Counted from the first letter of the stretch, positions 23,519-47,514 are shown. The stretch: 64,000 bases of DNA from Planctomycetota bacterium (GCA_022841245.1 JALHRW010000002.1:3362-67361), one strand, 5' to 3'. The notes: a model not told the origin generated them from the sequence alone. Numbers and translations: made by a program.

Positions 23519-24532
23519 TCAGCGGCCGGTCAGCTCCGCCGGCTCGCTCCCCGACCAAGTGATGCGCGACATGTGGAAGGTGGTGTCGCGGTCGAAGCCG
23601 GAGTTGGCCCAGCCCATCAGGTAGCCGTTGCACCACTGCTGCTGGCCGGCCGGCGCGTCGCTGCGCCTATCGAGTTCGGCATTGGCGATGTCGTGGTGCC
23701 TGCGGTAGTCCTGCTCGCCCTCGCGGCGCACCCAGCTGCGGATGACCCCGTCCTTGGCGCCGGGCTTGCTGCAGAAGCGGCCGTGGAAGATGATGTCGAT
23801 GAATTTCCCGCGATCAGCCTCGCTGACCAGCACCCCGGCGGTCGCCGGAGCGCGGCTGACAGTGTGGTTGCCGGCGGAGTAGCCGACGGTGAAGATGCTC
23901 TCCTTCTTGCCGTCGCCCCAGTTCAGATCGGTCTGCCAGATCAGCGTCGGTCCCAGGCCCTTGGCCGAGTAGCCGTCGGCCCAGATCGCCAGCAGCTTGT
24001 TGTTGGCCCCCCACTGCGAGCGCCCGGTGCTGGGCAGCGTGCTCGTGCGCGTCAGGTTGGTGATGCCGCCGACCCACGACTCGTTGTAGTACGAACGCGA
24101 GGCGTAGCGCAGGAAGATGCCCTTGGCATCGACCTGCGAGATGACGCCCTTCGCCTCGGCGACGGTGCCGCGCACCTCGTCGCCGATCTGCCAGCCGGCC
24201 GTGTCGGCTCCGACGATATCGAGGTGGGTGTCGTGGCGGTGGTGGTAGTCGGCCGGGATGTGCCAGCGGAAGCCCAGCCAGAAGGCGTCGGCCGGCGGCA
24301 TGGTGAAGCGCATCTCGCGCATGCCGTAGTTGCCTGGCCTGGTCCCGGTGAACTGGAAGGGCAGACCCTGGCCCTTGCGATCCGCCAGCGGCGTCAGCGC
24401 CCAGTTGGGTTCGGCGAAGGCCCATCCGCCCTTGGCTGCCAGCGTGTCGCCAGCGGCGAAGTCGTAGACCACGCCCTCGGCGGTCGTACCGGCGGCATGC
24501 AGCATCAGGCAGGCGATGAGTATATGGCGCAT
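23519..24532 (-). CDS. secreted beta-jelly-roll (ConA-like) protein, candidate polysaccharide lyase
   Basis: ORF 23519..24532. Signal peptide MRHILIACLMLHAAG. The C-terminal YLMGWANSGFDRDTTFHMSRI matches the corresponding YLLGAANSGFAEDTDFYIDDV in 33187..33969. Confidence 0.55.
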   Translation of the reverse strand: MRHILIACLMLHAAGTTAEGVVYDFAAGDTLAAKGGWAFAEPNWALTPLADRKGQGLPFQFTGTRPGNYGMREMRFTMPPADAFWLGFRWHIPADYHHRHDTHLDIVGADTAGWQIGDEVRGTVAEAKGVISQVDAKGIFLRYASRSYYNESWVGGITNLTRTSTLPSTGRSQWGANNKLLAIWADGYSAKGLGPTLIWQTDLNWGDGKKESIFTVGYSAGNHTVSRAPATAGVLVSEADRGKFIDIIFHGRFCSKPGAKDGVIRSWVRREGEQDYRRHHDIANAELDRRSDAPAGQQQWCNGYLMGWANSGFDRDTTFHMSRITWSGSEPAELTGR

Positions 24533-24547
24533 GTGGTGACCTGTGGA

Positions 24548-26353
24548 TCAGGGGGACAGATCGGCGTCGCGGCCGTGGCTGTGGCGCCATGGCGAATCAG
24601 CGGGGAGATGGCCGTCGCCATCGAGCACCACCTTGCCCTGGACGCCGTTCACATCGACGCCGCAGGCGCGCAGCCCGCTCCACTTCATCACCGTCTTGGA
24701 GTAGCCGGCCTTGATCATCGCAGCCTCGTCGACCAGGTTGCGGTCGCACCAGACGAAGCGCCAGCGGTTGGCGAAGTCGATGCCGGCCGGCACCCGGCTG
24801 GTGAAGAAGCCCTGGTCCGCATCCGCCGGCCGGGCGATGGCGTTGGCCCAGGCGAAGATCAGGCGCTGTTCGCGCGGATAGTCGCGGACCAGGGCCTGGC
24901 ACTCCGGATCGGCGGGGCCGTCGAGGGCCCGGCCAGCCGGATCGACCTTGTCGGGCCCCAACGCGCCGCCGCCCATCATCTGCAGGGCGCCGCGCACGGC
25001 ATTGTGGTGGAACCAGATGTTGCGCACCCAGCCCGGCTGCTTGCCGAGCGTGACGTGCCCGTCGATGAAGTTGTGGTGGATGTCGATGCCGTCGGTGCAG
25101 CCCTGGGCGGAGATGTTGAAATCACCCAGGAACACGTTGTTGCGGTAGGTGTTCTCCCAGCCGTTGTCCTTGTCGCTGATGGTCACGCCGTGGTGCATGC
25201 GTTCGAAGCGGTTGTCCTCGATCAGGCTGCCCTGGGTGGTGTACCAGGTGATGCCGCCGCCATGGCCGGCCTGCTTGAAGGTGTCGTAGGGGCGGTCGGA
25301 GAAGGTGCACTCCTGCACCACCGTGTGGAGGTAGGGTTGCGCCTGCGGCCGTCGGCCGAAGGGGCAGGCCTCCTCCTTCGAGCGCTTTTCCATCCCCGGC
25401 ATGCGTTCGTAGGTCCGCTCGGCGGCATAGCCGAAGATGAACGAGGGATTCTCGCCACCGTCGGCGTACATGTGGTGCAGATTGCAGCGCCGCCAGGTGA
25501 GGCCACGGCGCTGCCCGTGCCACATCACGAACATGTAGTAGTTCGCGTTCTTCACTTCCAGGCCGTCGAAGAGCAGGTCGTCCGTACCCGCGTCGATGAA
25601 GACGCGATGGCCATGGTTCATCGTGGTGACGTTGTCGTACGTCTTCTTGGGATCCGTGGCTGGATCGGCTGCGGCCTTGGCGTCGGCCTCGGCCATCAAG
25701 CCAGCCAGCGTGCTCTTCCACACCGCCTCGGTGAAGCCGAGGTCGATCACCGGCTTGTCGCCGGGCCAGGCCACCCAGCGGCGCGGCGAGGTGTCGGCGA
25801 TGCGCAGCACATTGCGGTTGGTCTTGCCCGGAGTCGCCGGGACCTCGACCAGGTAGGTGCCGCTGCGCAGGTACAACGTCGCCCGGGCGGCATCGGCCAC
25901 CGGTTGGGCGGCGCGCACCACCGTCTTCCACGGCTGCTCGAAGGTGCCGGGGTTGGCATCGTCGCCGGTCGGGCTGACGAAGAAGAACCCCTCCTTCCCC
26001 ACCGTGATGGTGAACGACTGCTCGGCCTTCCTGCTCGCCTGGTCGACCAGGGCCACCGTGACCGGCACCTCGCCCGCGCTCTGCGGAACCTGCCAGGTGA
26101 TGGTGCCCGTCCGGGCATCGATCACCATGCCGGTCGGGCCAGCGCGCAGCATGAATCGGTAGGGCCAGGTGCCGCCGGTTACCGCCGGGCGCATGTTGAA
26201 CTCGACCCCCGGATAGGCCCGCGGCAGTGGCAGCGAGATGAAGGTCGGCTGGCGGAAATAGGGAGCGTCTTCGGGCCGCGCGAAGCGATCGGATTCCTGG
26301 GCTCCAGCCATGAGACACATACTGAGCATTGTCAGAACATGACTTGCGCGCAT
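24548..26353 (-). CDS. secreted Ig-like domain plus right-handed beta-helix protein (family A)
   Basis: ORF 24548..26353. It has a signal peptide. A putative Ig domain follows (YPGVEFNMRPAVTGGTWPYRFMLRAGPTGMVIDARTGTITW). Then comes the pectate-lyase-fold entry motif FFFVSPTGDDANPGTFEQPWKTV. Paralogs lie at 50003 and 52970. Confidence 0.7.
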   Translation of the reverse strand: MRASHVLTMLSMCLMAGAQESDRFARPEDAPYFRQPTFISLPLPRAYPGVEFNMRPAVTGGTWPYRFMLRAGPTGMVIDARTGTITWQVPQSAGEVPVTVALVDQASRKAEQSFTITVGKEGFFFVSPTGDDANPGTFEQPWKTVVRAAQPVADAARATLYLRSGTYLVEVPATPGKTNRNVLRIADTSPRRWVAWPGDKPVIDLGFTEAVWKSTLAGLMAEADAKAAADPATDPKKTYDNVTTMNHGHRVFIDAGTDDLLFDGLEVKNANYYMFVMWHGQRRGLTWRRCNLHHMYADGGENPSFIFGYAAERTYERMPGMEKRSKEEACPFGRRPQAQPYLHTVVQECTFSDRPYDTFKQAGHGGGITWYTTQGSLIEDNRFERMHHGVTISDKDNGWENTYRNNVFLGDFNISAQGCTDGIDIHHNFIDGHVTLGKQPGWVRNIWFHHNAVRGALQMMGGGALGPDKVDPAGRALDGPADPECQALVRDYPREQRLIFAWANAIARPADADQGFFTSRVPAGIDFANRWRFVWCDRNLVDEAAMIKAGYSKTVMKWSGLRACGVDVNGVQGKVVLDGDGHLPADSPWRHSHGRDADLSP

Positions 26354-26376
26354 ATATCGCTTTCAGGATAGGCGTT

Positions 26377-26399: not shown

Positions 26400-26438
26400 T
26401 AACGGACGCGATACGCTTCTGTGACGTTACCTTGTGCT

Positions 26439-27527
26439 TCAGCTGTGCATCTGCAGCAACCGCGCCGGGTTGTCGACCAGGATGGCACGGATGTCGGCCT
26501 CACTGACACCGTGCCGGCGCAGGCCGGGTACGGCGAAGTCGAGCATGCCGGCATAGCCGAAGCCGCCGCCGGCACGGGTCAGCGCTTTCTGATAGACGTC
26601 GTTGCCGATGACGATCTGCCGCGCGTAGCCGGCGCGCAGCAACAGGATCAAGCCGGCGAGACGTACATTGTCCTCGTGGTCGGAAGGCGAGCCGAAAAGG
26701 TCGATGCATACGTTGACCCCGGCATCGAGAAGACGCTTGGCCCAGTCGAGATCGATGGACTGCCGACCTGGCTCCAGTAGCAGGCCAACCGGATCGGCCT
26801 GCAGGAAGGTGAACTGCAGGTGGCAGAACAGCAGACGCGAAGGATCCATGCCATATTCAAGGAAGGCGTCGAGCATGGCCTGCCGGCGGGCCGGGGCGGT
26901 GTAGCCACTGGTGTGCGCCGTGACCAGCATGCCCATCTCGCCCGCCACCTCGACGGTCGGACGGAGGAAGCACATCTCCTCATCGACGCCGTGGCGGATC
27001 GCCGTCTTGATGTGGCCGGCGCGGATATCCGTACCGTCCATGCCCTCGCCGATTTCCTGACGCAGATAGGCACGGAAACCGTCCGCATCCATACCGTGGA
27101 AGCGGGCTGGCCACGAATCGCGCACGTAGAGACCGGTGCTGGCAATGATGTGCACGCCGGTGGCCTGGGCGATGCGGCGCAGACCCGAAACATCGCCGCG
27201 GATGCCCGGGGCGCCTGGCTCAAGGATGGCTCCGCCGCCACGCGCCTTGAAATGAGCCACCTCGCGCTCCATCATCGCCTCATCGGCCAGCTCCCAGTTG
27301 TCGAGGTTCCTACCGCGCAGGCCGCACCGGTTGAGATAGCACAGATTCTCGATACCGAGCGGCGCATCGATGTCGATCGGACAGGCAGCCCGCTCCTCGG
27401 CGCTCAGCGGCTTGTGGAAGAACGGCGCCAGCACTGCCAGCACGTGGTCGTGCATCGAGGTGGTGCCGAGCGCGGCGGCCTGGACTGGGCCGCACACGGT
27501 CATGATCTGTCCCGTCGGTTGCATCAA
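26439..27527 (-). CDS. phosphotriesterase-family (amidohydrolase superfamily) protein
   Basis: ORF 26439..27527. The TTG start may really be the ATG at 27524 or 27503. HxH metal motif GTTSMHDHVL. TIM-barrel landmarks ASTGLY, GHIKTAI and VTAHTSG. Confidence 0.7.
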   Translation of the reverse strand: MMQPTGQIMTVCGPVQAAALGTTSMHDHVLAVLAPFFHKPLSAEERAACPIDIDAPLGIENLCYLNRCGLRGRNLDNWELADEAMMEREVAHFKARGGGAILEPGAPGIRGDVSGLRRIAQATGVHIIASTGLYVRDSWPARFHGMDADGFRAYLRQEIGEGMDGTDIRAGHIKTAIRHGVDEEMCFLRPTVEVAGEMGMLVTAHTSGYTAPARRQAMLDAFLEYGMDPSRLLFCHLQFTFLQADPVGLLLEPGRQSIDLDWAKRLLDAGVNVCIDLFGSPSDHEDNVRLAGLILLLRAGYARQIVIGNDVYQKALTRAGGGFGYAGMLDFAVPGLRRHGVSEADIRAILVDNPARLLQMHS

Positions 27528-27631: not shown

Positions 27632-30271
27632 TCAAGGCACGTCGCCCTCCAACGTGGGCATCAGCCAGAGCAGCTGCGCGATCACCTGGTTGCGCGTGAC
27701 GTTGTTGCCGATGCCGCCGGGCGCGTCGAAGACCAGTTTCTCGAGGGTGCGGAATGGCAGTGGCCACACGCCCTCGGGCAGGACGTCGGCGCTCATCGCA
27801 TCGCGGAAGCTGGCCGGCTTGCGCTTGGCCCAGGCGAAGAACTGCGCGCGCACACCCTTGTCGGGGAAGAGGGTCTCGAGGTCCTTCTTCAGCCGCTCAC
27901 GCCACTGCGTCTCGCCCTGCGAGAGCAGGTAGGCGCGCACGAAGGTCGCCGAGGGATCGTCGATCTCGGCCCAACCCTTGAGCCGATCGCGCACCCCACC
28001 GTGGGTGCGGATGTCGTGCAGCATCAGCGCCATGCCGCTGTCGAAGATCAGGCGGCCATAGCCGACTCCCGGCTTCACCTGCTTCTGCAACGCCTCGTCG
28101 ATCAGCTGCTGATCCCCGAGCGCATCGGCCATGTACAGGGCCGAGAGCACGCCCTCGTTCTCGTAGCGGTTCTTGCGCAACAGCCACGGGGCGAAGGCGC
28201 GCATCGCATCGAGGTCGCGGCCCTCGCCGGTGAGGAAATAGTGGTGCGCGACGGCGATCGAGGGGATGCCATAGCTGGTCATGTAGGTGCCCCAGTGCTG
28301 CTGGTCGTGGCGGTGGCCGCCACCGAGGCGCTCGCCGCCCTTGTTGTCGGTCGGCCGCGGCCCGTCGTCGGGGGTGTCCCAGAAGCAGCCGTCGACATCG
28401 CGGTGATGGCGCAGCCAGGTCTCGGCCTCGCGGAAATAGCGGTCGCGGCCGCTGCGCAGGTACTGCACGAACATCCACTGCCCGGTGCGGTAGGCCTCCT
28501 GGCCCCAGCCGCTGTAGCCCCAGTTCTGGAACAGGCCGGGATTCTCCGGCGCCTCCAGCTCCCAATTGATCGATTCGTACTCCAGCAGGTGGTCGCCATG
28601 GTCGAGCCAGCCGTACCAATGGAACTCCTGCGCCGCGCGCAGCGGCCAGGCGAAGGACAGGTCGACGTAGTTCTCGATGCGGGCGAAGCGCTTGGTGTCG
28701 TAGGGCGCCAGCGGACCGAACACGCCGGTGGCGCAGCTCCACGCCGGATCGGCGTAGGGGCGCAGCGGCTCCTGGAAGGCGCGGAAGGACTCGTCGACCT
28801 TGGCCGCCGCCTGGCCGCCGGCGTGGAAGCGGAAGAACAGCTCGCTGCTCTTGGCCAAACCGACCGCCGAGCCGGGATTGTTGAACTCGCGCCGCGCCGC
28901 CTTGCCGAAACTACCGCCCTTCTTCGGGCCATTGCCGCGAACGTCCTCATAGCGCCGGCGCAGATCGAGCGTGCGGTCGCCGTGGTCGGGCCACAGCCAC
29001 ACGCCGATGCGCCCGTCGCGGTACTGCACCTCCTTGGGATGCTCGCGCCAGAAATCGCGCAGGCCGACGGCGATGCCGAGCGTGCCGTTGGACACGTCAG
29101 CCCAACCGGAGGGATGGAAGCCCTTCTGCCGGCTGGTGCCGTCCTGCACCACCTCGTACTCGACGCGCAGGTCGTGGCTGGCCGGGACGTTGTGGTAGTA
29201 TTTGTCGGGACCGACGGACAGCAGATGCGCCGCGCCCTTCCGCGCCACTGTGCCGGCGATGATCTCGCTCGGACCGCGCTCGACCGGGATGTACGGGATG
29301 CTGTCGAGGCCGGGATTCAGCACTACCGGCTTGCCGGACTGCTCGAATGGTCCACCGAAGGCGTAGGCGAACTGCTCGCCGCTGAAGCCCACCGGCACCT
29401 CGATGGCCATGCGACGGATGAAGTTCTTGTCGGGATCGCCGGTCATCACCCAGGTGTGGTGCACGCGCACCGCATCCTGACCGGCGCTGAAGTGCAGGTA
29501 GAGGGTATACGCGCCGAACTGGCGGCCCTTGGCCGAGCGGTGCATGCCTTCCATGCGCAGCACCGTCTCGGTGGGACCGCTGCGGAAGACGCTGACCGCG
29601 TAGTCGCCGGCCGAGGCGAGGTAGCGCTCGCTGGTCTTGGCCTGCGACTTGCGCAGCCAATTGCCCCCCTCCATGCCGAAATACCACTTCCGGGGATACT
29701 CGCGCTCGCCGGCATCGCGCTCGCCGGGCGGCGCGTCGTCGAGGTCGATGAGCATCTCGCCCGGACCGTCGACCACCCGCTCGGCGGCGGCGTAGCTGCC
29801 GTCGCCATTGGCATCGACCCAGACCTGGCCGAGGAAGGCGAAGCGCTTGCGCTCGATCACCGCCTTCAGCCTGCCGGTATCGACGGTGATGGCGTCGGCG
29901 GTCTCGCTGACCCGGATGCCCTTGGCCTGACGGGCGGCCGGAGCCAGACGCAGGGTGTAGGCGCTGCCGCCACCGGCCGGCACATGGGCGAGGAAGTCGA
30001 GCAGCAGCCAGCGCACGCTGCCGTCGTCCCAGCGGCCGAGGACGGTGCCACGCTGCAGGCTGTCGACCGGCTTGCCGGCCTGGTCGAGCAGCTGCAGGCG
30101 GTCGAGCTGCGCCTCGCTGAGCGCCCCGCGCGGCATGGGGATGCCGCCCGAGACCGGCGCAGCGCGTCGCTGCACGCCGGCGTGCTCATCAACGCGGATC
30201 GGCACGCTGAGCGTGTCCGCCGCCCCCAGCAGGGCAGTCAGCAGGCAGAGGGCGGCAGGCGCATGGTCCAT
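27632..30271 (-). CDS. large secreted protein (879 aa), possibly a lyase/hydrolase of unassigned family
   Basis: ORF 27632..30271. Signal peptide MDHAPAALCLLTALLGAADT. The N-terminal VPIRVDEHAGVQRRAAPVSGGIPMPRG weakly resembles what I recall of bacterial exo-rhamnogalacturonan-lyase-like proteins. That assignment is weak. Confidence 0.45.
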   Translation of the reverse strand: MDHAPAALCLLTALLGAADTLSVPIRVDEHAGVQRRAAPVSGGIPMPRGALSEAQLDRLQLLDQAGKPVDSLQRGTVLGRWDDGSVRWLLLDFLAHVPAGGGSAYTLRLAPAARQAKGIRVSETADAITVDTGRLKAVIERKRFAFLGQVWVDANGDGSYAAAERVVDGPGEMLIDLDDAPPGERDAGEREYPRKWYFGMEGGNWLRKSQAKTSERYLASAGDYAVSVFRSGPTETVLRMEGMHRSAKGRQFGAYTLYLHFSAGQDAVRVHHTWVMTGDPDKNFIRRMAIEVPVGFSGEQFAYAFGGPFEQSGKPVVLNPGLDSIPYIPVERGPSEIIAGTVARKGAAHLLSVGPDKYYHNVPASHDLRVEYEVVQDGTSRQKGFHPSGWADVSNGTLGIAVGLRDFWREHPKEVQYRDGRIGVWLWPDHGDRTLDLRRRYEDVRGNGPKKGGSFGKAARREFNNPGSAVGLAKSSELFFRFHAGGQAAAKVDESFRAFQEPLRPYADPAWSCATGVFGPLAPYDTKRFARIENYVDLSFAWPLRAAQEFHWYGWLDHGDHLLEYESINWELEAPENPGLFQNWGYSGWGQEAYRTGQWMFVQYLRSGRDRYFREAETWLRHHRDVDGCFWDTPDDGPRPTDNKGGERLGGGHRHDQQHWGTYMTSYGIPSIAVAHHYFLTGEGRDLDAMRAFAPWLLRKNRYENEGVLSALYMADALGDQQLIDEALQKQVKPGVGYGRLIFDSGMALMLHDIRTHGGVRDRLKGWAEIDDPSATFVRAYLLSQGETQWRERLKKDLETLFPDKGVRAQFFAWAKRKPASFRDAMSADVLPEGVWPLPFRTLEKLVFDAPGGIGNNVTRNQVIAQLLWLMPTLEGDVP

Positions 30272-34999: not shown

Positions 35000-35007
35000 G
35001 ACGATTC

Positions 35008-39499: not shown

Positions 39500-40995
39500 G
39501 GGGCGGCGATCTCGCAGCCGCGGCGCCCGAGGAAGCGGCGGCGCAGGTCGCCGGCGAGCCGGCCCTGGGCGTCGACGATGCCGGTCTTGCCATGGCATTC
39601 GTCGGCGGTGACGGTGCAGGCCGCGGCGCTGCGCGGGGAGATGCCGCCGTCGGCGTTCTCGATGACGTTGCCGGCGAAGGCGACGCGAGCCCGCTTGGTG
39701 TGATCGAGGGCCATCACCTTGGCGCCGAGGTAGGTGTTGCGGTAGTCATGGCAGTCGGTGGCGATGGCGGTGGTGGCGTTGTTCCATTTCGCGGTGGCAC
39801 CTTCACCCGGGGCGGTACGCACGAAGTTCCAGCGGATCTCGCCGCTGCTCAGCGGCTGGTCGCCGGAGGTATTGGCGTTGTAGCCGGCCATCACCCCGGA
39901 GCCGGGCGCGACGGTGGCAGAGATGTCACAGACGTGGCGGCGGATGTCGTAGTCGCACATCGACTTGGGGAACCACAGCGGCTCGCTGAGACTGCTCTGG
40001 GTGGTGGTGAACACATCGCGCTCGGAGAGCAGCGGCCCGACCGTATAGAAGTCGAAGATGGCGACATCACGGCAGTCGTGGTAGCGATTCTCGGCCATCA
40101 GCAGGTGGCGGCGCTTCCCCTTGTCCAGACGGCTGCAGTACCAGACCGACTCGTTGTCGCTGATCTTCGGATCGCCGAACAGGCCGGTGAAGGCATTACG
40201 CCACACCGTCAGCCGATGCACGGTGTCGAAGGTGAATATGCAGCCTTTGGGACCGAAGTTCCGCAGATGCAGACCGGCGAGGAAGCCGTCGTCTGACTTG
40301 AAGGCGAATCGCGCCTCGGGCGTGGTGGCGGTTATTTCCGGGGTCTCGCCGGGCATCGCCACGACGGCGGTCGGCTTGCAGCGTGCATCCAGGCGGAATG
40401 CCTGCGCCAGGGTGTAGGCGCCGCCAGCCAGCATCAGCACCTTGCCACAGGCTGGGCTGACCGCCTCATGCGAGTCGCCATACACCGTAGCGAAGGCGGC
40501 GCGGTCCGCTGGGCTTGAGCCGTCGCCCTTCCCAGCCGCCTCCGGACCGGCGAAGTAGTGGTGCAGCGCATCGACGGTCAGCGTCCAGACGCACTCCACC
40601 GATGCACCCTGCTGGTCGGTGATGGTCACGGCGATGCGATGCGTCCCAGCCACCGGGGCTGGCCAGCTCAGAGTGCCATACGCCGGGGTCTCCCGCAGGG
40701 TGCCATCCGGCTGCCGTTCCAGCCAGGCGCCGATGGTCATGCCCTGCGGAGCAGTGGTCAGGCGGTAGTGGTACGGGTAGGAGCCGAATGCCGCGCGCAC
40801 CGGGCAGTCCCAGCGCAGTCCGGGGTGAGCGACGCGGTGGTAGGCCGTCGGGGCGGTCTCGGTCTCGGGCCGAGGGTGGATGGCGGTCAGGGCGAATCGC
40901 GCCGGCTCGAAATGGCCGGCAGGCAGGCGCCAATCCTCCTGGGCAGTGAGCTGCAGGGCGGCCAGCAGCAGGACGCAGGCAGGCAGGTGGCGCAT
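39496..40995 (-). CDS. secreted Ig-like plus beta-helix protein (family B, tandem array member 1)
   Basis: Within ORF 39496..41034. ATG at 40995 gives MRHLPACVLLLAALQLTAQEDWRLPAGHFEPARF. It aligns along its whole length with 36483..37994, including the C-terminal ECHGK(T/D)GIVD motif. Confidence 0.7.
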   Translation of the reverse strand: MRHLPACVLLLAALQLTAQEDWRLPAGHFEPARFALTAIHPRPETETAPTAYHRVAHPGLRWDCPVRAAFGSYPYHYRLTTAPQGMTIGAWLERQPDGTLRETPAYGTLSWPAPVAGTHRIAVTITDQQGASVECVWTLTVDALHHYFAGPEAAGKGDGSSPADRAAFATVYGDSHEAVSPACGKVLMLAGGAYTLAQAFRLDARCKPTAVVAMPGETPEITATTPEARFAFKSDDGFLAGLHLRNFGPKGCIFTFDTVHRLTVWRNAFTGLFGDPKISDNESVWYCSRLDKGKRRHLLMAENRYHDCRDVAIFDFYTVGPLLSERDVFTTTQSSLSEPLWFPKSMCDYDIRRHVCDISATVAPGSGVMAGYNANTSGDQPLSSGEIRWNFVRTAPGEGATAKWNNATTAIATDCHDYRNTYLGAKVMALDHTKRARVAFAGNVIENADGGISPRSAAACTVTADECHGKTGIVDAQGRLAGDLRRRFLGRRGCEIAAP

Positions 40996-41011: not shown

Positions 41012-43300
41012 TCAGCGTGCAGGTACGCGAGCATCGTAATCGTCGGGGTCCGGCCCCTGCAGCGAGCCGACGCCGAAGCCGTCGCCGTCGCAATCCATCA
41101 CCTCCGGACCCGGCGGATCGGAAACGACGTTCGAGAGCAGGCCGGCCTGTCCCGCCTGGTCGATGGCGCGCACGGCCACGTGCCAGGTCTTACCTTTGGG
41201 CAGCCCCTCGAGGATGATGCGCTCCTCTGTACCGCTCTTCTGCGGCGCAGGCGGATTGGCCAGGCGCGTGGCCGTCTCCCAGGTGGAGACGGTCAGCGGC
41301 CGGTCCGACCAGCGGATGTCGTAGGACGCGGCCTGGCCGTGACGGCCATCCTCGCCCGGGGCGCCGAACGACAGCTCGACGGCATTGTCCGAGCTGCGCT
41401 TGAGGCTGCAGAGGATCTTGCGCGGAGCCAGGGTGTCGCCGCAGGTGAAGGTCGCGTCGGGCGTGACCGTGCGGTTGCCCAGGCCATCGACCGCGGTGAC
41501 CCGCCAGTGGTAGGTCCTGCCGACCTCCAGCTTGCCGAGCTTGATGAACGGATAGCGGCCGTCGCCCTTGGCGCTCTTCCCGTACGCAGTCGTTTCCCCG
41601 AACTCGATCGTGGCCTCGACCTCGGTCGACCAGCGACCGCAATACGACGGTTCCTCGGGCTTGTGGAAACGGGTGCTGTAGATGGCCTGCGCCAGGCACT
41701 GCGGGGGATCGGCGCCGGGGCCCGGCGTGATGCGGAAGGCCACCTGCTTGCTCGCACTCTGCTCCCAATCCTTTTCGCGCCAGACGGTGTGCTCGACCAC
41801 CAGATCGTGCTCGCCGGCGGCCATGTCCCGGCGCAGCATGCCGGTGTTGCTGTGGTGGCCCTGCGTCCGGTTCACCCGGTCATGCAGCACTGCGCCATCG
41901 AGAGTGATGCGCAGGCCGTCGTAGGCTGCGAAGCGGACGACGTGCGGCCCGCCGGCGAAGCGCGCCCGCTTGCTGTAGCGGATCGACAGCGCCTGGGTGG
42001 TGTCCAGTCCGAGCTCGGCGTCGACCCCGGGCCAGGATACCGAACTGAGCGACTCGAATGTGCGCACCATGGCCGGGGCGCCGCTGAAGCCGCGGCCGAG
42101 GAAGATCTCGCCCTTCCACGCCCCGGCTGCGCCAGCGGCATCGACCGCCGCCGCCTTGCCGGGGATGAGATCGGGGTACGAGTCGGCGCGGGCGGCGACG
42201 ACCAGCGGCGACGACTCGAGCCGGCGCCCCTTGGCGTCCTCGACGATGGCGACCAGGGCATAGCGCTTGCCGGGTTTCATCCCGGCGAGGTCGACAGCAT
42301 GGAAATAGCCGGGAGCCTCGACCGTACCGGCAGTGGTGACCGCCGTCTTCCGCCAGTCGGGCCCCTCCTCGCCCCACAGCACGGCGATGCTGCGCGCCGG
42401 CACCGTGCTGTCGAAGCGCAGGGTCAGCGCATCGGGCTTGAGCCCGGTCATGCGCAGGCGCTCGATCTGCGCCCGGTTCGGTCCGAACTCGACGAACTGC
42501 TTCGAGATGATCAGGTTGTCGAGCAGGATCTCGAAGGCCGGGTGCGGCGGAGCGGTGAACGACTCGAAGACGTTGGAGACGGTGTCCTTCGGCACATACT
42601 CCATCGAGTGCCAGTAATTGCTGATCCAGAAGGTGTCGAATGAGGAGATGGTGTCGTGCTTGCAGAAATTCGACAGCACGCCATCGACCCACACCTTCAT
42701 GCGTCCGACCGCCGGATCCTTCTGCGACGGCACGATCATCACCTGGTAGGAGTGCCATTCCCCGCGCCGACCCGGCTCATGACCTTCGAACGAGCGCAGG
42801 ATGCGATGATAGCCGGAGCCGCGCAGGACGGAGAAGCCGTGGGGGTCCCATTCCGGATCGAGCCAGGGACGATGGTCGGTGGCATGATCGACCACCGCCA
42901 TGCCGCCGTCCTTGCCGCCCTTCCCCTTGGTCGCATCGAAGAGATAGTAGCCGTGATCGCCGCGACCGATGTAGAAGTTCGCCGGCACCTGCACCATGTA
43001 ATGGGCGAAGAGCACGCCGTCGTGGCGCGGGAAGCGCACCTCGGGGTATGGCGGCAGGCCGTTGTTCTCGACCAGCACATTGCTGTAGCCGAAGCCCGAT
43101 TTCCAGCCGGCTCCGGCGCGCACTCCGTGCCGGCCGGTGATCGAGAACGGCGGCAGGGCGCCGGTCTGTTCACGCCCGGACTCGAAGTCCTCGCAGTAGA
43201 GGTAGTCGGGGTTGCCCTTGTCCGGCAGGACGGCGGTCTCGCCGGCCCAGGCTCCGGCCCCGGCCAGGGCCAGCGATGCAGCCAGGCGCAGGCCGCTCAT
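41012..43300 (-). CDS. secreted multidomain protein: jelly-roll N-domain, FN3-like modules and a PA14-like module
   Basis: Within ORF 41012..43378. ATG at 43300 (ATGA overlap with the ald stop) gives the signal peptide MSGLRLAASLALAGAGAWA. The middle segment WKGEIFLGRGFSG ... FAAYDGLRITLDGAVLHD is PA14-like. The C-terminal FN3-like repeats include YHWRVTAVDGLGN and WHVAVRAIDQAGQ. Confidence 0.6.
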   Translation of the reverse strand: MSGLRLAASLALAGAGAWAGETAVLPDKGNPDYLYCEDFESGREQTGALPPFSITGRHGVRAGAGWKSGFGYSNVLVENNGLPPYPEVRFPRHDGVLFAHYMVQVPANFYIGRGDHGYYLFDATKGKGGKDGGMAVVDHATDHRPWLDPEWDPHGFSVLRGSGYHRILRSFEGHEPGRRGEWHSYQVMIVPSQKDPAVGRMKVWVDGVLSNFCKHDTISSFDTFWISNYWHSMEYVPKDTVSNVFESFTAPPHPAFEILLDNLIISKQFVEFGPNRAQIERLRMTGLKPDALTLRFDSTVPARSIAVLWGEEGPDWRKTAVTTAGTVEAPGYFHAVDLAGMKPGKRYALVAIVEDAKGRRLESSPLVVAARADSYPDLIPGKAAAVDAAGAAGAWKGEIFLGRGFSGAPAMVRTFESLSSVSWPGVDAELGLDTTQALSIRYSKRARFAGGPHVVRFAAYDGLRITLDGAVLHDRVNRTQGHHSNTGMLRRDMAAGEHDLVVEHTVWREKDWEQSASKQVAFRITPGPGADPPQCLAQAIYSTRFHKPEEPSYCGRWSTEVEATIEFGETTAYGKSAKGDGRYPFIKLGKLEVGRTYHWRVTAVDGLGNRTVTPDATFTCGDTLAPRKILCSLKRSSDNAVELSFGAPGEDGRHGQAASYDIRWSDRPLTVSTWETATRLANPPAPQKSGTEERIILEGLPKGKTWHVAVRAIDQAGQAGLLSNVVSDPPGPEVMDCDGDGFGVGSLQGPDPDDYDARVPAR

Positions 43301-44403
43301 GCCGCCGCCCTCTCGAAGCGTCCCGCCTGCAAGCCGTGCGCCTGCGCCACCGCCGGCAGCACGATCTGGCGCTGCCACACGTTCACGCCCTCGCGCAGGC
43401 CGGGACGGCGGCGGCAGGCTTCGGCCAGCCCGTGGTTGGCGAGCAGCTCGATGTACGGGGCGGTGACATTGCCGAGAGCCTGGGTGGCGGTGCGGGCGTA
43501 GGCGCCGGGCATGTTGGCGACGCAGTAGTGGATGACCCCCTCTTCGACGTAGACCGGATCCTGGTGCGTGGTCGGGCGCGAGGTCTCCAGGCAGCCGCCC
43601 TGGTCGATGGCGATGTCGACCGCCACCGAACCGGGCCGCATCAGGCGCAGCATCTCGCGCGTCACCAGGCGCGGCGCGCGCGCGTTGGGCACCAGCACGG
43701 CGCCGATCAGCAGGTCGACCTGCGGCAGCAGCTGGGTCAGGTGCGCTTCGCTGGAGTACAGCGTGCTGGCCGAGGCGATGGTGATGTCGAGGAAGCGCAT
43801 GCGCTCGACGTCGACCTCCAGGATGGTGACGTCGGCGCCCAGGCCCTGGGCCATGCGCGCGGCGTTGATCCCGGCGGTTCCGCCGCCGAGCACGCAGACC
43901 TTGCCGGGCAGCACGCCGGGCACGCCGCCGAGCAGCACGCCGGTGCCGCCGTTGCTCTTGGCCAGCCAGTGCGCGCCGACCACCACGCTCATGCGCCCGG
44001 CGATCTCGCTCATCGGTTCGAGCAGCGGCAGGCGGCGGTTCTCCACCACCGACTCGTAGGCGATGCCGGTGACGCCGCTGTCGCGCAGGGCGAGGGTCAG
44101 CTCGCGCGCCGCGGCGAGGTGCAGGTAGGTGAAGAGCAGCTGGCCGGGGCGGAACAGCGCCACTTCGGACATCTGCGGCTCCTTGACCTTGACCACCAGG
44201 TCGGCGGCGAAGGCCTCGGCATGGCTGTCGACCAGCCGGGCGCCGGCGCGCAGGTACTCCTCGTCGATGAAGCCGCAGCCGGCGCCGGCCTGCCGCTCGA
44301 CCAGCACCTCGTGGCCCTGGCGGACCAGCTGGTGGGCGATGGCGGGCATCAGGGCGACGCGGTACTCGCCCGCCTTGATCTCCTTGGGGACGCCGATGAT
44401 CAT
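43297..44403 (-). CDS. ald: alanine dehydrogenase
   Basis: Within ORF 43297..44463. ATG at 44403 follows AAGGAG and gives MIIGVPKEIKAGEYRVALMP. NAD-binding loop VLGGGTAGINAA. DIAIDQGGC. Length 368 aa is typical of Ald. Confidence 0.88.
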   Translation of the reverse strand: MIIGVPKEIKAGEYRVALMPAIAHQLVRQGHEVLVERQAGAGCGFIDEEYLRAGARLVDSHAEAFAADLVVKVKEPQMSEVALFRPGQLLFTYLHLAAARELTLALRDSGVTGIAYESVVENRRLPLLEPMSEIAGRMSVVVGAHWLAKSNGGTGVLLGGVPGVLPGKVCVLGGGTAGINAARMAQGLGADVTILEVDVERMRFLDITIASASTLYSSEAHLTQLLPQVDLLIGAVLVPNARAPRLVTREMLRLMRPGSVAVDIAIDQGGCLETSRPTTHQDPVYVEEGVIHYCVANMPGAYARTATQALGNVTAPYIELLANHGLAEACRRRPGLREGVNVWQRQIVLPAVAQAHGLQAGRFERAAA

Positions 44404-44419
44404 GTGGACTCCTTGGGTG

Positions 44420-46474
44420 TCAGGCGCCGATTTCGGTCGCCTCGTACTGATCGTTGAAGGCATGCAGCCGCGCCAGGTAGCCGTCGAGGTCGAGGAGATC
44501 CTCGTCGACCATCAGATAGCGCATGTCGGCGGTGCGGTTGGCGAAGTGGCGGGCGCGCTCCGGACGCCACATGTAGGTGCGCCCGTCGGCGGCCAGACCC
44601 TTGGGCAGGCGGGTGCGCTCCCAGCAGGCGACCAGCTCGCGGTAGACGCGCTCGCGCTCGGCGATCAGTCCGCCCAGCACCTCCTCCATGCCGCGCAGGC
44701 AGCGCAACGCGCCGGCACGGTCGATGACGTGCAGATCGTAGGAGGCCGTCTTGAGCAGCTCCTCGACCCGGCCGAGGCCGAGGATGAGGTCGACGTTGTG
44801 ACGCATCAGCGCGACGCAGGACAGCATCACCTCGAGGTCGTAGGCATGATGCGCGCCGTGAGCCAGGTTGGCGCGCAGGATCGACTCGGCGCGTTCCAGG
44901 CCCTGACGCTGCTCGTGCGCTCGGCGCAGCATCGGCGCATAGCGTTTGCGCCAGAAGGTGTCGTATTCCAGCCCGGCGCGCGGGAGGTCGGGGAGGTGCA
45001 CCTTGCCGACATCGCCCCAGTGCCAGACGCGGCGCTGCAGCGTGTCGTCGTAGAACAACGCCCCCTCCTGCAGCAGGCGCTGGCATTCGCGCATGCTCCC
45101 GGCCTGGGCGCCGAAGTAATGCAGGTAGAAGCGGTCGATCCAGGCGTCGAGGTCGGGCTCGTCGGGGTTCCAGCTCCAGGCGCAGGCGCAGGCGAAGTGC
45201 GGCATGAACATCTGGTTGTGCAGGCCGGAGTCGTCCCACGAGGTGGTGATCGAACCGCGCACCGAGCCGTCGCGCGCGGCGCGGCGGATGGCGTCGCTGG
45301 TGCGGGCGAAGCCGCCGACCCAGCGCTCGCCCGGCCAGTCGCTCCACATCGACGACTTGACCCACGGCAGCTGGAAATCGATCAGCGCGGTGACACCGGT
45401 GTTGGGAGCGTAGATCCAGCAGGGATAGCCGGCCTCGGCCGAGGCCTTGACCACCTCCGGCCGCTCACCGTCGCACCACACCATGCCCGGACGCGGTGGA
45501 CGGCCGCCCGGCTTCCACTGCCCGCCCCACGACAGGCAGGTGCGGCCCTGCGCTTCGACCCAGTCGGTGCAGCGGTCGATGAACAGCCGCATCAGGTCGT
45601 CCTTGCCGTGCGCCGCCGCGTGCGCGGCGCAGCCGCAGGCGGTGCCCAGGCCCAGCTCGTAGGTTTCGTCCGAGCCGATGTGCAGGAAGCGGCTGCCCGG
45701 CGTCGCCTCGATCGCCTCGCTCCACAGCTGGAAGAGCAGCTCGTAGCTGCCCTCCTTGAGCGGGCAGAATTCCCAGTCGGAATCGGGGATCTCGCGCAGG
45801 TGGCGGAACTCGCGGTGCTTGAGGATGAAGGGCACGTGGCCGAGGCCCTGCACCAGCGGCACGATCTCGACGTGGTGACGGCGGGCGTAGGCGGTCAGCT
45901 CGGCCATCTGCGCGATGGTGAAGGCGCCGGGCGCGCCGAGCTGCGGGTGCCGACGCCAGGCGAGCTTGTCCTCCCACTCCCACACCAGGATGTTGGCCTT
46001 CCACGCCGCGATCTCGCGGATGAACGACTGCACGTAGGCGTAGGTGTCCTGGTGGTGCTTGGTGTCGTAGTGGATGGCGCGATGGGCCAGGGCCGGCGCG
46101 TCGTCGATGCGCAGGCAGGGCAGGCGCCGCCCGTCGAGGCACTGGATCAGCGTCTGCACCGCGTAGTAGACGCCGGCCGCGTCGTTGCCCACGATGCGGA
46201 TGCCGTCGGCCGCGATGTCCAGGCGGTAGCCCTCGACCGGACCGTCGCCCCGGGCGATGCTGACCAGCGGCGCTGCGCCGCCGATCATCGCCGTGATGCC
46301 GAGCTCGTGCAGAGCCTCGATCAGACAGGTGGCAGCGAAGGCATCCTCGTCGTCGTCAGCGGCAATGCGGATGGCCAGGCGCGCAGGAAGCACCAGCTCC
46401 CCGCCGGTGAGGTTCAGTGAACGCGGCGTCGGGATGAGGTTGGGCGTCATGGGCTCGGTCTCGGTCGAGCTCAT
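44420..46474 (-). CDS. glycoside hydrolase family 20 beta-N-acetylhexosaminidase-like
   Basis: ORF 44420..46474. The N-terminal domain is GH20b-like (IPTPRSLNLTGG ... GYRLDIAADGIRIVGNDAAGVYYAVQTL). The catalytic region carries the H-x-G-x-D-E motif (FLHIGSDETYELG). The ATG overlaps the upstream stop (46471-46474). Confidence 0.75.
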   Translation of the reverse strand: MSSTETEPMTPNLIPTPRSLNLTGGELVLPARLAIRIAADDDEDAFAATCLIEALHELGITAMIGGAAPLVSIARGDGPVEGYRLDIAADGIRIVGNDAAGVYYAVQTLIQCLDGRRLPCLRIDDAPALAHRAIHYDTKHHQDTYAYVQSFIREIAAWKANILVWEWEDKLAWRRHPQLGAPGAFTIAQMAELTAYARRHHVEIVPLVQGLGHVPFILKHREFRHLREIPDSDWEFCPLKEGSYELLFQLWSEAIEATPGSRFLHIGSDETYELGLGTACGCAAHAAAHGKDDLMRLFIDRCTDWVEAQGRTCLSWGGQWKPGGRPPRPGMVWCDGERPEVVKASAEAGYPCWIYAPNTGVTALIDFQLPWVKSSMWSDWPGERWVGGFARTSDAIRRAARDGSVRGSITTSWDDSGLHNQMFMPHFACACAWSWNPDEPDLDAWIDRFYLHYFGAQAGSMRECQRLLQEGALFYDDTLQRRVWHWGDVGKVHLPDLPRAGLEYDTFWRKRYAPMLRRAHEQRQGLERAESILRANLAHGAHHAYDLEVMLSCVALMRHNVDLILGLGRVEELLKTASYDLHVIDRAGALRCLRGMEEVLGGLIAERERVYRELVACWERTRLPKGLAADGRTYMWRPERARHFANRTADMRYLMVDEDLLDLDGYLARLHAFNDQYEATEIGA

Positions 46475-47514
46475 GCCGCCCGCTGCGCCGCTGCAGCGGT
46501 CCAGGCCAGGCGTCGAGCCTGCTCGATCAGCGGCGCGCCGGTGAAGCCGGGCGGATAGGGCAGCCAGTCGTAGCGCATGGCGTCGAACGCCGACGAGGGC
46601 ATGAAGTCGTCGGATGCGCTCAGGCGCAGCGGCAGATCGCCTTCGGCTCCGGGCGGCAGACCGTGTTCAGCCAGCAGCGCGGCGAGATCGCGCCGCTGGC
46701 CGGAACGCTCGCGATGCAGGGCGGCGAAATCGATGTTGCGCAGATCGCGGCGGGCCTTCAGCCAGTCGAGCCAGCCGGAGCAGCGCCGCTGGTAGCGCTC
46801 GACCTCGTCGGCCGGACGCAGCGGCGCTGGCGGGCAGTCGGCGATGGCGCGGCGACGGCCTTTGGCGAAGGCCTGGTCCCAGAAATCCGCCGTCACCAGC
46901 CGGGTGGGATGGGTGTAGAGCACGATGACGCCGTCGGCCGGCGTGGCCGCGACCAGCTCGTCGATGCGCTGCTCGAACGCGCCGGGCATGAAGCGGCTGT
47001 CCTCGTAGAAATCCTGGAAATCGAGATCGTAGTTCGACACCAGCAGGCCGCAGTACCAGTGCGGCGTGCGCGGGAAACCCGCCAGCTTGTCGTTGCAGAA
47101 CACCTGCAGGCCCATGCGCGCCATCGCCAGCAGGGTCGCCGGCGTCCACGAGTCGCCGGGCGAGCAGTAGCTCACCGGCCAACGCCCGAAGGCCTCGGCG
47201 ATGCTCGCCAGGCCGGGCGCCTCGCGGCGCAGCACATGCGCGATGCCGTCGCGCAGGCTGAGATCCTGCACTGCTTCGGGATGGGTCGGCGGCTGCGAGT
47301 GGCGGTCGGTGTGGAAGCCGATCTCATGCCAGGCGATGGCGTCGATCACGTCCTGGCGATCCCAACGCCGCAACGCGCGCACCAGTTCGCCGACCAGCTG
47401 GAACGAGCCGCGCAGCCCGCGCCGGCTCAAAGCCTGGGCCCACCACAGTTCCGCCTCCGCCGCCTGCGGCGTGAGGTAGTCCTCGCTGTCGAAGGAAATG
47501 ATCAGGTCTGTCAC
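46471..47514 (-). CDS. NodB/CE4-like polysaccharide deacetylase family protein
   Basis: ORF 46471..47514 with a GTG start. NodB-like motif 1 is SFDSED and motif 2 is H-T-D-R-H (EIGFHTDRH). It is the first gene of the long minus-strand train. Confidence 0.55.
   Translation of the reverse strand: MTDLIISFDSEDYLTPQAAEAELWWAQALSRRGLRGSFQLVGELVRALRRWDRQDVIDAIAWHEIGFHTDRHSQPPTHPEAVQDLSLRDGIAHVLRREAPGLASIAEAFGRWPVSYCSPGDSWTPATLLAMARMGLQVFCNDKLAGFPRTPHWYCGLLVSNYDLDFQDFYEDSRFMPGAFEQRIDELVAATPADGVIVLYTHPTRLVTADFWDQAFAKGRRRAIADCPPAPLRPADEVERYQRRCSGWLDWLKARRDLRNIDFAALHRERSGQRRDLAALLAEHGLPPGAEGDLPLRLSASDDFMPSSAFDAMRYDWLPYPPGFTGAPLIEQARRLAWTAAAAQRAA

Follow-up and report, generated by a model that had tools for sequence, protein, structure and literature searches.

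A gene cluster without SusC/SusD in a Planctomycetota bacterium, probably for use of an anionic, N-acetylhexosamine-containing glycan

Main

A run of minus-strand genes and a convergent plus-strand operon, on a 64,000-nucleotide (nt) stretch of DNA from a Planctomycetota bacterium (GCA_022841245.1, JALHRW010000002.1:3362-67361; the window, below, is the whole of this stretch), probably form a polysaccharide-utilisation cluster, that is, a carbohydrate-active enzyme (CAZyme) gene cluster without SusC/SusD, for an anionic glycan containing N-acetylhexosamine (HexNAc) in a bacterium of the Planctomycetota-Verrucomicrobiota-Chlamydiota (PVC) group. The type of system is an ordinary, known one; its interest lies in a set of uncharacterised candidate enzyme families, including a seven-copy family of secreted proteins that join an immunoglobulin-like (Ig) domain to a beta-helix. 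An earlier reading of the DNA by itself (the sequence-only reading) had proposed a system resembling a polysaccharide utilisation locus (PUL) without SusC/SusD. That proposal is supported: CAZymes lie together with a major facilitator superfamily (MFS) transporter and a GntR/sugar-binding regulator, several related contigs share the core in synteny, and no match to a TonB_dep_Rec, Plug, CarboxypepD_reg or SusD family came out of Pfam searches with about 45 open reading frames (ORFs) from across the window.

Gene content and proposed pathway

Pfam assignments give a CAZyme gene cluster in the dbCAN-CGC sense, with glycoside hydrolases of families GH20, GH130 and GH4, a PF14099 polysaccharide lyase (PL) and a PIG-L deacetylase accompanied by the MFS transporter g12 and the regulator d4 (Table 1). 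Localisation, called by inspection of N-termini, divides these products in two: signal peptides are present on the depolymerase-like and binding-type proteins and absent from the GH20, g1, GH130, GH4, phosphotriesterase-family (PTE) and alanine dehydrogenase (AlaDH) proteins and from g-1. Gene content, this secreted/cytoplasmic split, the presence of a regulator and a transporter, and families that re-associate after rearrangements in related genomes together fit polysaccharide utilisation.

In the pathway that we propose, about 15 secreted proteins would attack a complex, probably anionic heteropolysaccharide outside the cell: the seven Ig plus beta-helix proteins, g-4, the jelly-roll proteins g10, g16 and d3, the PA14/fn3 protein g4, g13, d1 and the transglutaminase-like g-2, with the beta-helix proteins serving as endo-depolymerases, more likely lyase-like. 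The resulting oligosaccharides would be imported through g12 (through an ATP-binding cassette (ABC) system in relatives). Inside the cell, GH20 would act on beta-linked HexNAc, g1 and PIG-L would remove N-acyl groups, GH130 would phosphorolyse beta-mannosides and the NAD-dependent GH4 would act on alpha-galactoside-type linkages, with contributions from the PTE-family and Gfo/Idh/MocA enzymes. AlaDH and the GlpD-like flavoenzyme g-1 would channel by-products into central metabolism, and the GntR/sugar-binding regulator d4 would govern expression.

The sequence-only reading had named GH20, GH130, GH4, MFS, AlaDH and PTE members, and all six labels are confirmed by Pfam, with NCBIfam adding an equivalog match for AlaDH and the alpha-galactosidase subfamily for GH4. 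The GH20 protein scores 53.7 bits against a cut-off of 22.3 and retains an intact HxGxDE motif (H265-I-G-S-D269-E270). The best relatives of the GH130 protein in the PDB are beta-1,2-mannoside phosphorylases (1e-56 for 9fj8, a 1,2-beta-oligomannan phosphorylase), and the NCBIfam model for beta-1,2-mannobiose phosphorylase gave 231 bits (below its cut-off) versus 91 bits for the BT3780 mannosidase model. The PTE-family protein g14 is possibly a lactonase or phosphoesterase. The flavoenzyme g-1 is most similar to the N-terminal portion of glycerol-3-phosphate dehydrogenase; a role as a D-amino-acid dehydrogenase paired with AlaDH was considered and rejected, the D-amino-acid dehydrogenase model of NCBIfam being far weaker than that for glycerol-3-phosphate dehydrogenase.

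A NodB-like deacetylase had also been named, and here the label stands for the fold and the Asp/His/His motif but not for the sequence family. The AlphaFold2 model of g1 (mean predicted local distance difference test (pLDDT) 94.6) has as its top Foldseek matches in the PDB ArnD, carbohydrate esterase family 4 (CE4) esterases and peptidoglycan or chitin deacetylases (probability 1.0, E from 1e-7 to 1e-5 for ArnD, CE4 esterases and peptidoglycan deacetylases), along with GH57, and seven residues are invariant in 27 homologues (D9, E11, D12, H63, H68, H72 and H202), including the H68-x3-H72 motif. JGI names three of the homologues PgdA/CDA1. Pfam, including PF01522 (Polysacc_deac_1), gave no match even at E ≤ 5, NCBIfam gave none, and a family profile found no sequence relative in the PDB. 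By its model g1 thus has a NodB fold, and by its alignment a conserved Asp-His-His set, but it lies outside the PF01522 sequence family.

HexNAc is a plausible constituent of the substrate, given the GH20 protein with its intact motif, the NodB-fold g1 and PIG-L. A uronic acid or otherwise anionic character, which the sequence-only reading had called possible, gains plausibility from PF14099, the PcRGLX-like g13, the heparinase-like d1 and the Lys/Arg-rich site of the beta-helix proteins, and GH130 and GH4 would point to additional beta-mannoside and alpha-galactoside-type linkages. We infer that the substrate is most plausibly a glycan of HexNAc and uronic acid with mannose and galactose, possibly a bacterial exopolysaccharide (EPS) or capsule; phage homologues of the beta-helix proteins and a cyclic di-GMP context in Lysobacterales, both described below, hint that the target may be a polysaccharide of bacterial surfaces or matrices.

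Layout of the train and of the convergent operon

Genes were called by third-position G+C (GC3) frame analysis and start-site inspection in a window of 64-72% G+C, where mechanical ORF lists abound in spurious frames. Exactly 16 minus-strand genes (g1 to g16) occupy 23519-47514, the number that the sequence-only reading had counted there, and two further details of its layout were reproduced: five 4-nt overlaps, all ATGA on the coding strand (46471, 43297, 39496, 37991 and 36483), and a widest gap of 104 nt, which lies between g13 and g14 and holds for a TTG start at 27527 (107 nt for an ATG start at 27524). Its estimate that unassigned secreted proteins fill more than half of the coding capacity is likewise borne out, the nine proteins so labelled making up 4835 of 7830 residues (62%). 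Its upstream boundary at 47514 was wrong: five extra minus-strand genes (g-1 to g-5, 47693-54739) precede g1, so that the same-strand run has 21 genes and 31.2 kb rather than 16 genes. Gaps across the 21 genes range from -4 to 178 nt, the larger ones (60-178 nt) being concentrated at g-2/g-1, at g-1/g1 and from g10 through g15. The common strand, the five ATGA overlaps and gaps of at most 178 nt would be compatible with a single operon, whereas the rearrangements between strains speak for several units.

A near-identical 18-nt junction (GAAACCCT[A/G][G/A]G[A/G]ATCGTC, then ATG) occurs on the minus strand at 35000-35017 and 49995-50012. At each site it reaches from the end of a beta-helix gene ('...KP-stop'; g8, g-3) into the beginning of the gene that follows (g9, g-2). 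None was expected by chance, on the evidence of 100 shuffles, and the junction could be a joint from recombination or duplication, or else a translational-coupling element common to both gene pairs.

The train converges with the plus-strand operon, the two stop codons (23510-23512 on the plus strand, 23519-23521 on the minus strand) lying 6 nt apart. A short hairpin across 23507-23524 was flagged as terminator-like, at a frequency equal to chance. The sequence-only reading had placed a PIG-L deacetylase and a heparinase II/III-like lyase at 18794-23512; a PIG-L gene and a heparinase-like gene are present, but within 20610-23512 only, and 18794-19828 and 19861-20613 are two other genes (d3 and d2') without a family match. 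Its association of this operon with the train is upheld by a more distant genome, GCA_028280785.1 (contig L013; 40-64% amino-acid identity), where homologues of the regulator, g1, GH20, the heparinase-like gene and d3 stand in one operon, an arrangement which suggests that the two convergent operons of the window are functionally linked. Homologues of d1 (59-77% identical) are co-located with g1/GH20 in L013 and in two further contigs, L004 and L012, and in all three a d3 homologue (40-76% identical) follows the heparinase-like gene.

Seven paralogous Ig plus beta-helix proteins

Five Ig plus beta-helix proteins had been recognised in the sequence-only reading. The family is indeed present, but in seven paralogues, the additional two being g-3 and g-5, and it falls into a long subtype (about 580-600 amino acids (aa); g15, g-3 and g-5) and a short one (about 500 aa; g5, g6, g7 and g8). 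By its sequence, g-4 looks like an eighth beta-helix protein, without the Ig domain. An ORF at 50187-51791 was discarded as a wrong frame, GC3 placing the real gene, g-3, at 50003-51733. The AlphaFold2 model of g7 (pLDDT 90.6) shows an Ig domain and, C-terminal to it, a right-handed beta-helix; in BFVD it comes closest to phage beta-helix tail proteins.

The family is large. A word-indexed search had returned only 17 relatives and suggested great rarity, a view overturned by an exhaustive profile search, which gave 7307 matches at E ≤ 1e-3 and 808 cluster representatives at E ≤ 1e-30, mostly about 500 aa and full-length; 808 is a lower bound on the number of clusters at 50% identity. A profile of 70 family sequences matched the PL9 enzyme BT4170 (2.8e-8), GH110 (5e-5) and GH141 (0.03), and on this evidence the family appears only remotely related to all three. 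The best match to the Pel9A-like domain of PL9 reached 19.5 bits against a cut-off of 25.2 and covered profile positions 10-63 only, which leaves the family outside PL9. No catalytic Pfam family scored above cut-off for the Ig plus beta-helix proteins, PHROGs holds no family that matches them, NCBIfam gave nothing for g5 and g6, and a single-sequence PDB search with g7 was empty. Literature searches on the Ig plus beta-helix family, on PcRGLX relatives and on new beta-helix lyase families found nothing specific.

Among 127 members, K350 is conserved in 100%, N286 in 98%, N422 in 97%, N393 in 92%, Y323 and R421 in 90% and R358 in 89%, and the spacing of conserved positions (about 30-37 residues) roughly equals that of successive beta-helix rungs. 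Positions E331 and E389 are acidic in 84-86% of the members, and a strictly conserved carboxylate pair is lacking. The site thus has an invariant lysine, conserved arginine and asparagine residues and two mostly acidic positions, none of which could be aligned to the catalytic lysine or the Ca2+-binding acidic cluster of PL9. Since the invariant lysine and the conserved arginine and asparagine residues come without a strict carboxylate pair, the site is more lyase-like than hydrolase-like, and we infer that the Ig plus beta-helix proteins are endo-acting depolymerases, lyase-like being likelier than hydrolase-like.

An alternative interpretation is that these proteins are non-catalytic surface proteins (adhesins, S-layer-like or glycan-binding proteins) and that only the recognisable CAZymes are enzymes. 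The He_PIG Ig domain does resemble adhesin modules, the PDB matches of highest probability for the N-terminal domain being SraP, cadherins and Rib domains; beta-helix adhesins exist; and the missing carboxylate pair and the lack of a Pfam catalytic family above cut-off fit this interpretation too. We nevertheless consider it quite improbable, because polar residues at rung spacing together with a fully conserved lysine, across paralogues only 20-30% identical, form a pattern typical of an active site, because the remote homology is to enzyme families (PL9, GH110 and GH141), because phage homologues belong to tail/lysis modules, whose beta-helix proteins are usually depolymerases, and because the genes are packed among CAZyme genes with translational coupling. 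Full-length phage homologues were found on L006 and L007 (IMG/VR UViG_3300020044) and L002 (JGI 3300020047) at 34-38% identity; on the two IMG/VR phage contigs the homologues, at 34% identity, follow tape-measure, tail and endolysin-like genes and precede a spanin gene (seen in L007). One of these homologues, P0013, is extended by about 85 additional residues at its N terminus.

Other secreted proteins

The sequence-only reading had left the jelly-roll, PA14/FN3 and 879-aa proteins unassigned. The PA14/fn3 architecture of g4 was recovered (Pfam Pur_ac_phosph_N and fn3; 2.8e-6 to the PA14 domain of RsgI3 for a family profile searched against the PDB), whereas two of the others could be given families: g10 belongs to PF14099, and the 879-aa g13 has, by Pfam, the three-domain architecture of PcRGLX (PcRGLX_2nd 9.2e-19, 68.1 bits versus a cut-off of 23.5; PcRGLX_3rd 3.3e-7, 30.4 versus 23.8; PcRGLX_1st 1.2e-3, 19.1 versus 22.1, just under), with an empty single-sequence PDB search and no NCBIfam match. 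The N-terminal domain of g4 (about 270 residues) is strongly conserved and has no known relative. Homologues of g4 occur in Phycisphaeraceae and Kiritimatiellae, and two of them, P0239 and P0241, are Rosetta-stone fusions to a PF14099 lyase domain; PF14099 (g10) and g4 are separate genes in the window. The paralogues g10 and g16 have a common C-terminal motif, GY(L)xGxANSGF. Profile comparisons (hhalign) of the g4 family with g10, g16 and d3 gave non-significant or weak similarity, and a common jelly-roll origin of the four is a suggestion only. In NCBIfam, g4 and g-4 had only matches far below cut-off.

The transglutaminase-like g-2 is 54% identical to a paralogue, d10 (7926-8999, minus strand), and its homologues in L003 and L016 (70-78% identical) adjoin beta-helix genes. 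As a side observation, d10 itself adjoins a 967-aa protein without a family match and three prepilin-type N_methyl proteins (11896-16011); N_methyl proteins of this type are in keeping with an organism of the PVC group.

Synteny and evidence against a single glycan-utilisation system

The closest genome is that of an uncultured Lentisphaerales metagenome-assembled genome (MAG; GCA_964417715.1), which holds, at 55-96% amino-acid identity and in a different order, homologues of g-5, g-2, g7, g5/7, g8, GH130, PL, g4, g1, GH20, d5, d1, d3 and the regulator, with an alanine racemase gene between g1 and GH20 and ABC permeases in place of the MFS transporter. Contig L018 (98.2% nt identity), an independent assembly of the same arrangement, is collinear over g2-AlaDH-g4-g5-g6. 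L010 (81-95% aa) has the order g8-g4-g1-GH20-g5-g6-GH130-MFS-g13, so that its g12 homologue (90% identical) adjoins GH130 and the PcRGLX-like gene; L017 (JGI Ga0172380_10043484; 94.9% nt) runs from g8 straight to GH4, without GH130 and PL; and L016 (91-97% aa) has g-2, g-1, an insert of 7.8 kb with a glycerophosphodiesterase gene at its far end, and then g1-alanine racemase-GH20. A shuffled core of g4, g1, GH20, beta-helix, GH130, transporter and PcRGLX-like genes is kept in related contigs, and a regulator of d4-type architecture flanks the cluster also in L001, L012 and L013.

We caution that a number of results weigh against the reading of these genes as one glycan-utilisation system. Gene order and content vary among strains that are 95-98% identical in nt sequence. 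A scan for sigma-70-type promoters and intrinsic terminators inside the train gave no signal above shuffled controls, and with both at chance the sequence neither supports nor contradicts co-transcription. The unsaturated-uronyl hydrolases (GH88/GH105) and KduI/KduD expected for a lyase-based pathway are absent from the window. No characterised homologue was found for g4, g16, d3 or g-4, and searches of the PDB, PHROGs, profiles and the literature found no characterised member of the beta-helix family. The fold of g7 matches solved structures weakly (GH28 best, E 2e-4; PL6, 5e-3; template modelling score about 0.25), and the alignment to PL9 BT4170 spans residues 3-159, the N-terminal third of the helix, outside the catalytic region. 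Lastly, in Lysobacterales-type contigs (L005, L008, L009, L019-L021, L025 and L026) the beta-helix genes form a tandem trio (g6-like, g15-like and g7-like) without neighbouring CAZymes.

Given the strain-level differences in order and content, the 21 genes are better seen as a modular island than as a fixed operon; the same-strand run reported in the sequence-only reading is real, but a single 16-gene unit was too strong a claim for genes whose order is mosaic among near-identical strains. The differences also raise the alternative of a mosaic CAZyme island, in which independently acquired and regulated modules (g-5 to g-2; g-1; g1-g3; g4-g10; g11-g16) for different glycans would have no more than the strand in common. 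Besides the shuffled modules of L010 and L017 and the insertions on either side of g1 in L016 (7.8 kb after g-1, an alanine racemase gene before GH20), the positions of the larger gaps fit this alternative, the near-identical junction before g9 and g-2 suggests recombination joints, and GH4, GH130 and GH20 imply chemically distinct linkages. We regard it as rather unlikely, because g4, g1, GH20, beta-helix, GH130, transporter and PcRGLX-like genes regroup after each rearrangement, one regulator type accompanies the modules, and complex heteropolysaccharides usually demand many linkage specificities per locus.

The Lysobacterales trio bears on a further alternative, namely that the genes serve remodelling or turnover of the cell's own exopolysaccharide or biofilm matrix, as biosynthesis-associated lyases, epimerases and deacetylases, instead of foraging. 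In L019, the one Lysobacterales contig whose flanks were scanned, the trio adjoins two GGDEF diguanylate cyclase genes, and systems that make EPS (alginate, poly-N-acetylglucosamine) include beta-helix epimerases and lyases as well as CE4 deacetylases. We consider a role in the cell's own matrix very improbable for the window: its approximately 45 ORFs include no glycosyltransferase, flippase, polymerase or export-protein family in Pfam, catabolic cytoplasmic enzymes are present (a GH130 phosphorylase-like protein, GH4, GH20 and AlaDH), and so are an importer and a sugar-sensing, repressor-type regulator.

Alanine enzymes in the g1-GH20 module

Of the four close-relative loci with a visible g1-GH20 module, three (the window and L018, L016, and the MAG, but not L010) have an alanine-converting enzyme within it: AlaDH in the window (43297-44403) and L018, and an alanine racemase directly after g1 in L016 (11041-12189) and in the MAG (L001, 19735-20871). 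In L016 a glycerophosphodiesterase gene (GDPD) adjoins g1 divergently, and in the window the GlpD-like g-1 is directly upstream of g1. The alanine enzymes in the module and the nearby GlpD-like and glycerophosphodiesterase genes weakly suggest that alanine is released from the substrate. Acidic EPS or capsules amidated with amino acids (alanine) have been described for Colwellia and Vibrio (PMC5852497), and in the exo-degradation of teichoic acid by GlpQ, D-Ala and sugar substituents must first be removed (PMC7086022). An extended reading would make the Ig plus beta-helix proteins a new lyase-type family, with the invariant lysine as base and members in PVC bacteria, Lysobacterales and phages, and the cluster a system for alanine-carrying bacterial surface glycopolymers; we think it unlikely. 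Amino-acid-amidated acidic EPS or capsule and D-alanylated, GlcNAc-substituted glycerol-phosphate teichoic acids would be candidate substrates, weakly indicated, from which g1 could strip alanyl or acyl decoration while g-2 could act as an amidase; a PTE-family esterase could fit too.

Surroundings in the window

The upstream border of the train has what looks like the remnant of a gene, a short minus-strand ORF (54818-55411) whose C-terminal half is similar, by eye, to the C-terminal region of a Clp/AAA+ ATPase. Tandem repeats of 7 nt (55226-55312, 12.4 copies; 55429-55492, 8.7 copies), which encode 'PAPSAQR'-type repeats, come before it. A divergent plus-strand neighbour (55225-56865; real start probably about 55591) has an unusual architecture of tetratricopeptide repeats followed by two stretches that match the RNA-polymerase alpha-subunit C-terminal domain. 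A phosphate-type ABC uptake operon (58543-64000, plus strand) lies 3.8 kb from the cluster, with a PstS-like PBP_like_2 protein, two permeases of unusual length (752 and 549 aa) and the beginning of an ABC ATPase gene. At the other end of the window are an AraC-family regulator (1622-2635), a pyridoxal-phosphate-dependent enzyme (2632-3930), a glucuronyl-esterase-like alpha/beta hydrolase (3946-4917; CE15-like, weak) and a Ser/Thr protein kinase of 1002 aa (4921-7929).

Table 1 Genes of the minus-strand train and of the convergent plus-strand operon. Values after family names are E-values unless given in bits; SP, signal peptide; HTH, helix-turn-helix.
Gene	Position	Strand	Length (aa)	Predicted product and supporting matches
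g-5	52970-54739	-	589	Secreted Ig (He_PIG) + beta-helix, long subtype; heads the extended train; Pfam He_PIG 3.2e-11; SP by inspection; 57% identical to g15
g-4	51751-52968	-	405	Secreted, beta-helix-like without Ig; weak NCBIfam choice-of-anchor-Q match 1.1e-3, below cut-off; N-rich repetitive rungs by eye; GC3 0.90
g-3	50003-51733	-	576	Seventh Ig + beta-helix paralogue, long subtype; frame by GC3; Pfam He_PIG 2e-11, Beta_helix 7e-4
g-2	48912-49994	-	360	Secreted, transglutaminase-core-like; Pfam Transglut_core 1.1e-3, below cut-off
g-1	47693-48793	-		Cytoplasmic FAD oxidoreductase, DAO family; Pfam DAO 1.4e-53; NCBIfam glycerol-3-phosphate dehydrogenase 258 bits versus cut-off 360; start taken from L016 homologue
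g1	46471-47514	-	347	Cytoplasmic NodB/CE4-fold metal hydrolase, deacetylase-like
g2	44420-46474	-	684	Cytoplasmic GH20 beta-N-acetylhexosaminidase-like; Pfam Glyco_hydro_20b 3.5e-19, Glyco_hydro_20 2.8e-14; no SP
g3	43297-44403	-		L-alanine dehydrogenase; NCBIfam TIGR00518 equivalog 470.4 bits versus 391.85; Pfam AlaDh_PNT_C/N
g4	41012-43300	-	762	Secreted; N-terminal ~270-aa domain (jelly-roll-like), fn3, PA14, fn3, Asp/Gly-rich C-terminal tail
g5	39496-40995	-	499	Secreted Ig + beta-helix, short subtype; 57% identical to g7; no Pfam match
g6	37991-39499	-	502	Secreted Ig + beta-helix, short subtype; 29-32% identical to g5 and g7; no Pfam match
g7	36483-37994	-	503	Secreted Ig + beta-helix, short subtype; reference member for modelling
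g8	35008-36486	-	492	Secreted Ig + beta-helix, short subtype; Pfam He_PIG 1.1e-10; 25-28% identical to g5-g7
g9	33989-34999	-		Cytoplasmic GH130; Pfam 6.5e-49, 167 bits versus cut-off 26
g10	33187-33969	-	260	Secreted jelly-roll protein; Pfam Polysacc_lyase PF14099 2.2e-9, 37.9 bits versus cut-off 29.9
g11	31694-33112	-		Cytoplasmic GH4, NAD-dependent, alpha-galactosidase subfamily; Pfam Glyco_hydro_4 + 4C, 190 + 164 bits; NCBIfam PRK15076 542 bits versus 486
g12	30350-31633	-		MFS transporter, presumed oligosaccharide importer; Pfam MFS_1 5.7e-29
g13	27632-30271	-	879	Secreted, PcRGLX-like (RIFT barrel, beta-sandwich, alpha/alpha toroid)
g14	26439-27524	-		Cytoplasmic phosphotriesterase-family (amidohydrolase fold); Pfam PTE 3.5e-37; NCBIfam all far below cut-off
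g15	24548-26353	-	601	Secreted Ig + beta-helix, long subtype; Pfam He_PIG 3.8e-11, Pel9A-like cap 5e-4; PDB 5olq (PL9) 4e-4 over 55 residues
g16	23519-24532	-	337	Secreted, final gene of train; distant g10 paralogue (jelly-roll), BLASTP 1.3e-5; no Pfam or NCBIfam match
d1	21317-23512	+	731	Secreted heparinase II/III-like; Pfam Hepar_II_III_C 4.1e-6, 26.9 bits versus cut-off 24; N-terminal toroid undetected by Pfam
PIG-L	20610-21329	+	239	PIG-L (LmbE/CE14-type) de-N-acetylase; Pfam PIG-L 1.9e-17, 64.4 bits versus 28.2; VVAAHPDDE at residues 8-16
d2'	19861-20613	+	250	Start uncertain; GC3 frame; no Pfam match
d3	18794-19828	+	344	Secreted, no family match; weak likeness to g4 N-terminal domain (hhalign 4.6e-4, probability 33%)
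d4	17678-18718	+		GntR-HTH + periplasmic-binding-protein-type sugar-sensing regulator; Pfam GntR 8.9e-10, Peripla_BP_3 2.8e-23
d5	16540-17622 (start approximate)	+		Gfo/Idh/MocA sugar oxidoreductase; Pfam GFO_IDH_MocA 6.9e-27; homologues 62-64% in L004, L012

Discussion

PVC-group bacteria are major, poorly understood degraders of complex glycans, and the locus described here is a compact and synteny-validated source of candidates for new enzyme families: the Ig plus beta-helix proteins, the N-terminal domain of g4, g16, d3 and the divergent NodB-fold g1. The phage homologues and the embedded alanine enzymes are clues to a bacterial surface polysaccharide as the target; if that is so, the system would be one for turnover of bacterial necromass or EPS and a source of biofilm-degrading enzymes.

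Among characterised enzymes, the beta-helix proteins resemble PL9 (BT4170, PDB 5olq; Pfam Pel9A-like_beta_helix) in the right-handed beta-helix, the type of N-terminal cap and a conserved helix lysine as in beta-helix lyases, with GH110 and GH141 as looser kin; unlike PL9, they match over about 140 N-terminal residues only, fall under the Pfam gathering cut-off and add a He_PIG Ig domain. With phage tailspike and tail-fibre depolymerases they have in common the fold class and full-length homologues at 34% identity beside phage tail and lysis genes, but they have Sec-type signal peptides, lack a virion-anchoring domain and belong to a catabolic cluster. Like CE4/NodB deacetylases (ArnD and those of peptidoglycan and chitin), g1 has a distorted (beta/alpha) barrel and an Asp...His-x-x-x-His pattern; unlike them, it has neither PF01522 nor a PDB sequence match, continues for about 100 further residues at its C terminus and is cytoplasmic, and in L016 and the MAG it is followed by an alanine racemase. 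The three-domain architecture of g13 is, by Pfam, that of the PL26 exo-rhamnogalacturonan lyase PcRGLX, from which it is too divergent for a PDB sequence match; it could be a lyase or a hydrolase.

As a system, the cluster follows the scheme of Bacteroidota PULs (Sus), in which a polymer is cut at the surface or outside the cell and its fragments are imported and broken down further by exo-acting enzymes, under a regulator of their own, but differs from them in having no SusC/SusD, in import by MFS (ABC in relatives) and in its regulator, a GntR-HTH/periplasmic-binding-protein hybrid instead of a hybrid two-component system, SusR or an extracytoplasmic function sigma factor. Closer parallels are the CAZyme gene clusters and PUL-like loci of the PVC superphylum (Planctomycetota, Verrucomicrobiota, Kiritimatiellota and Lentisphaerota; PMC11131199, PMC10880615 and PMC11361711). 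Judged by the sections of these papers drawn on here, the present cluster is like those loci in combining CAZymes with a transporter and a sugar-sensing regulator, and secreted enzymes with cytoplasmic exo-enzymes and phosphorylases, in the absence of SusC/SusD; measured against the same sections, it is set apart by the fact that more than half of its secreted proteins belong to families without a characterised member, by one family present seven-fold and by the embedded alanine enzyme.

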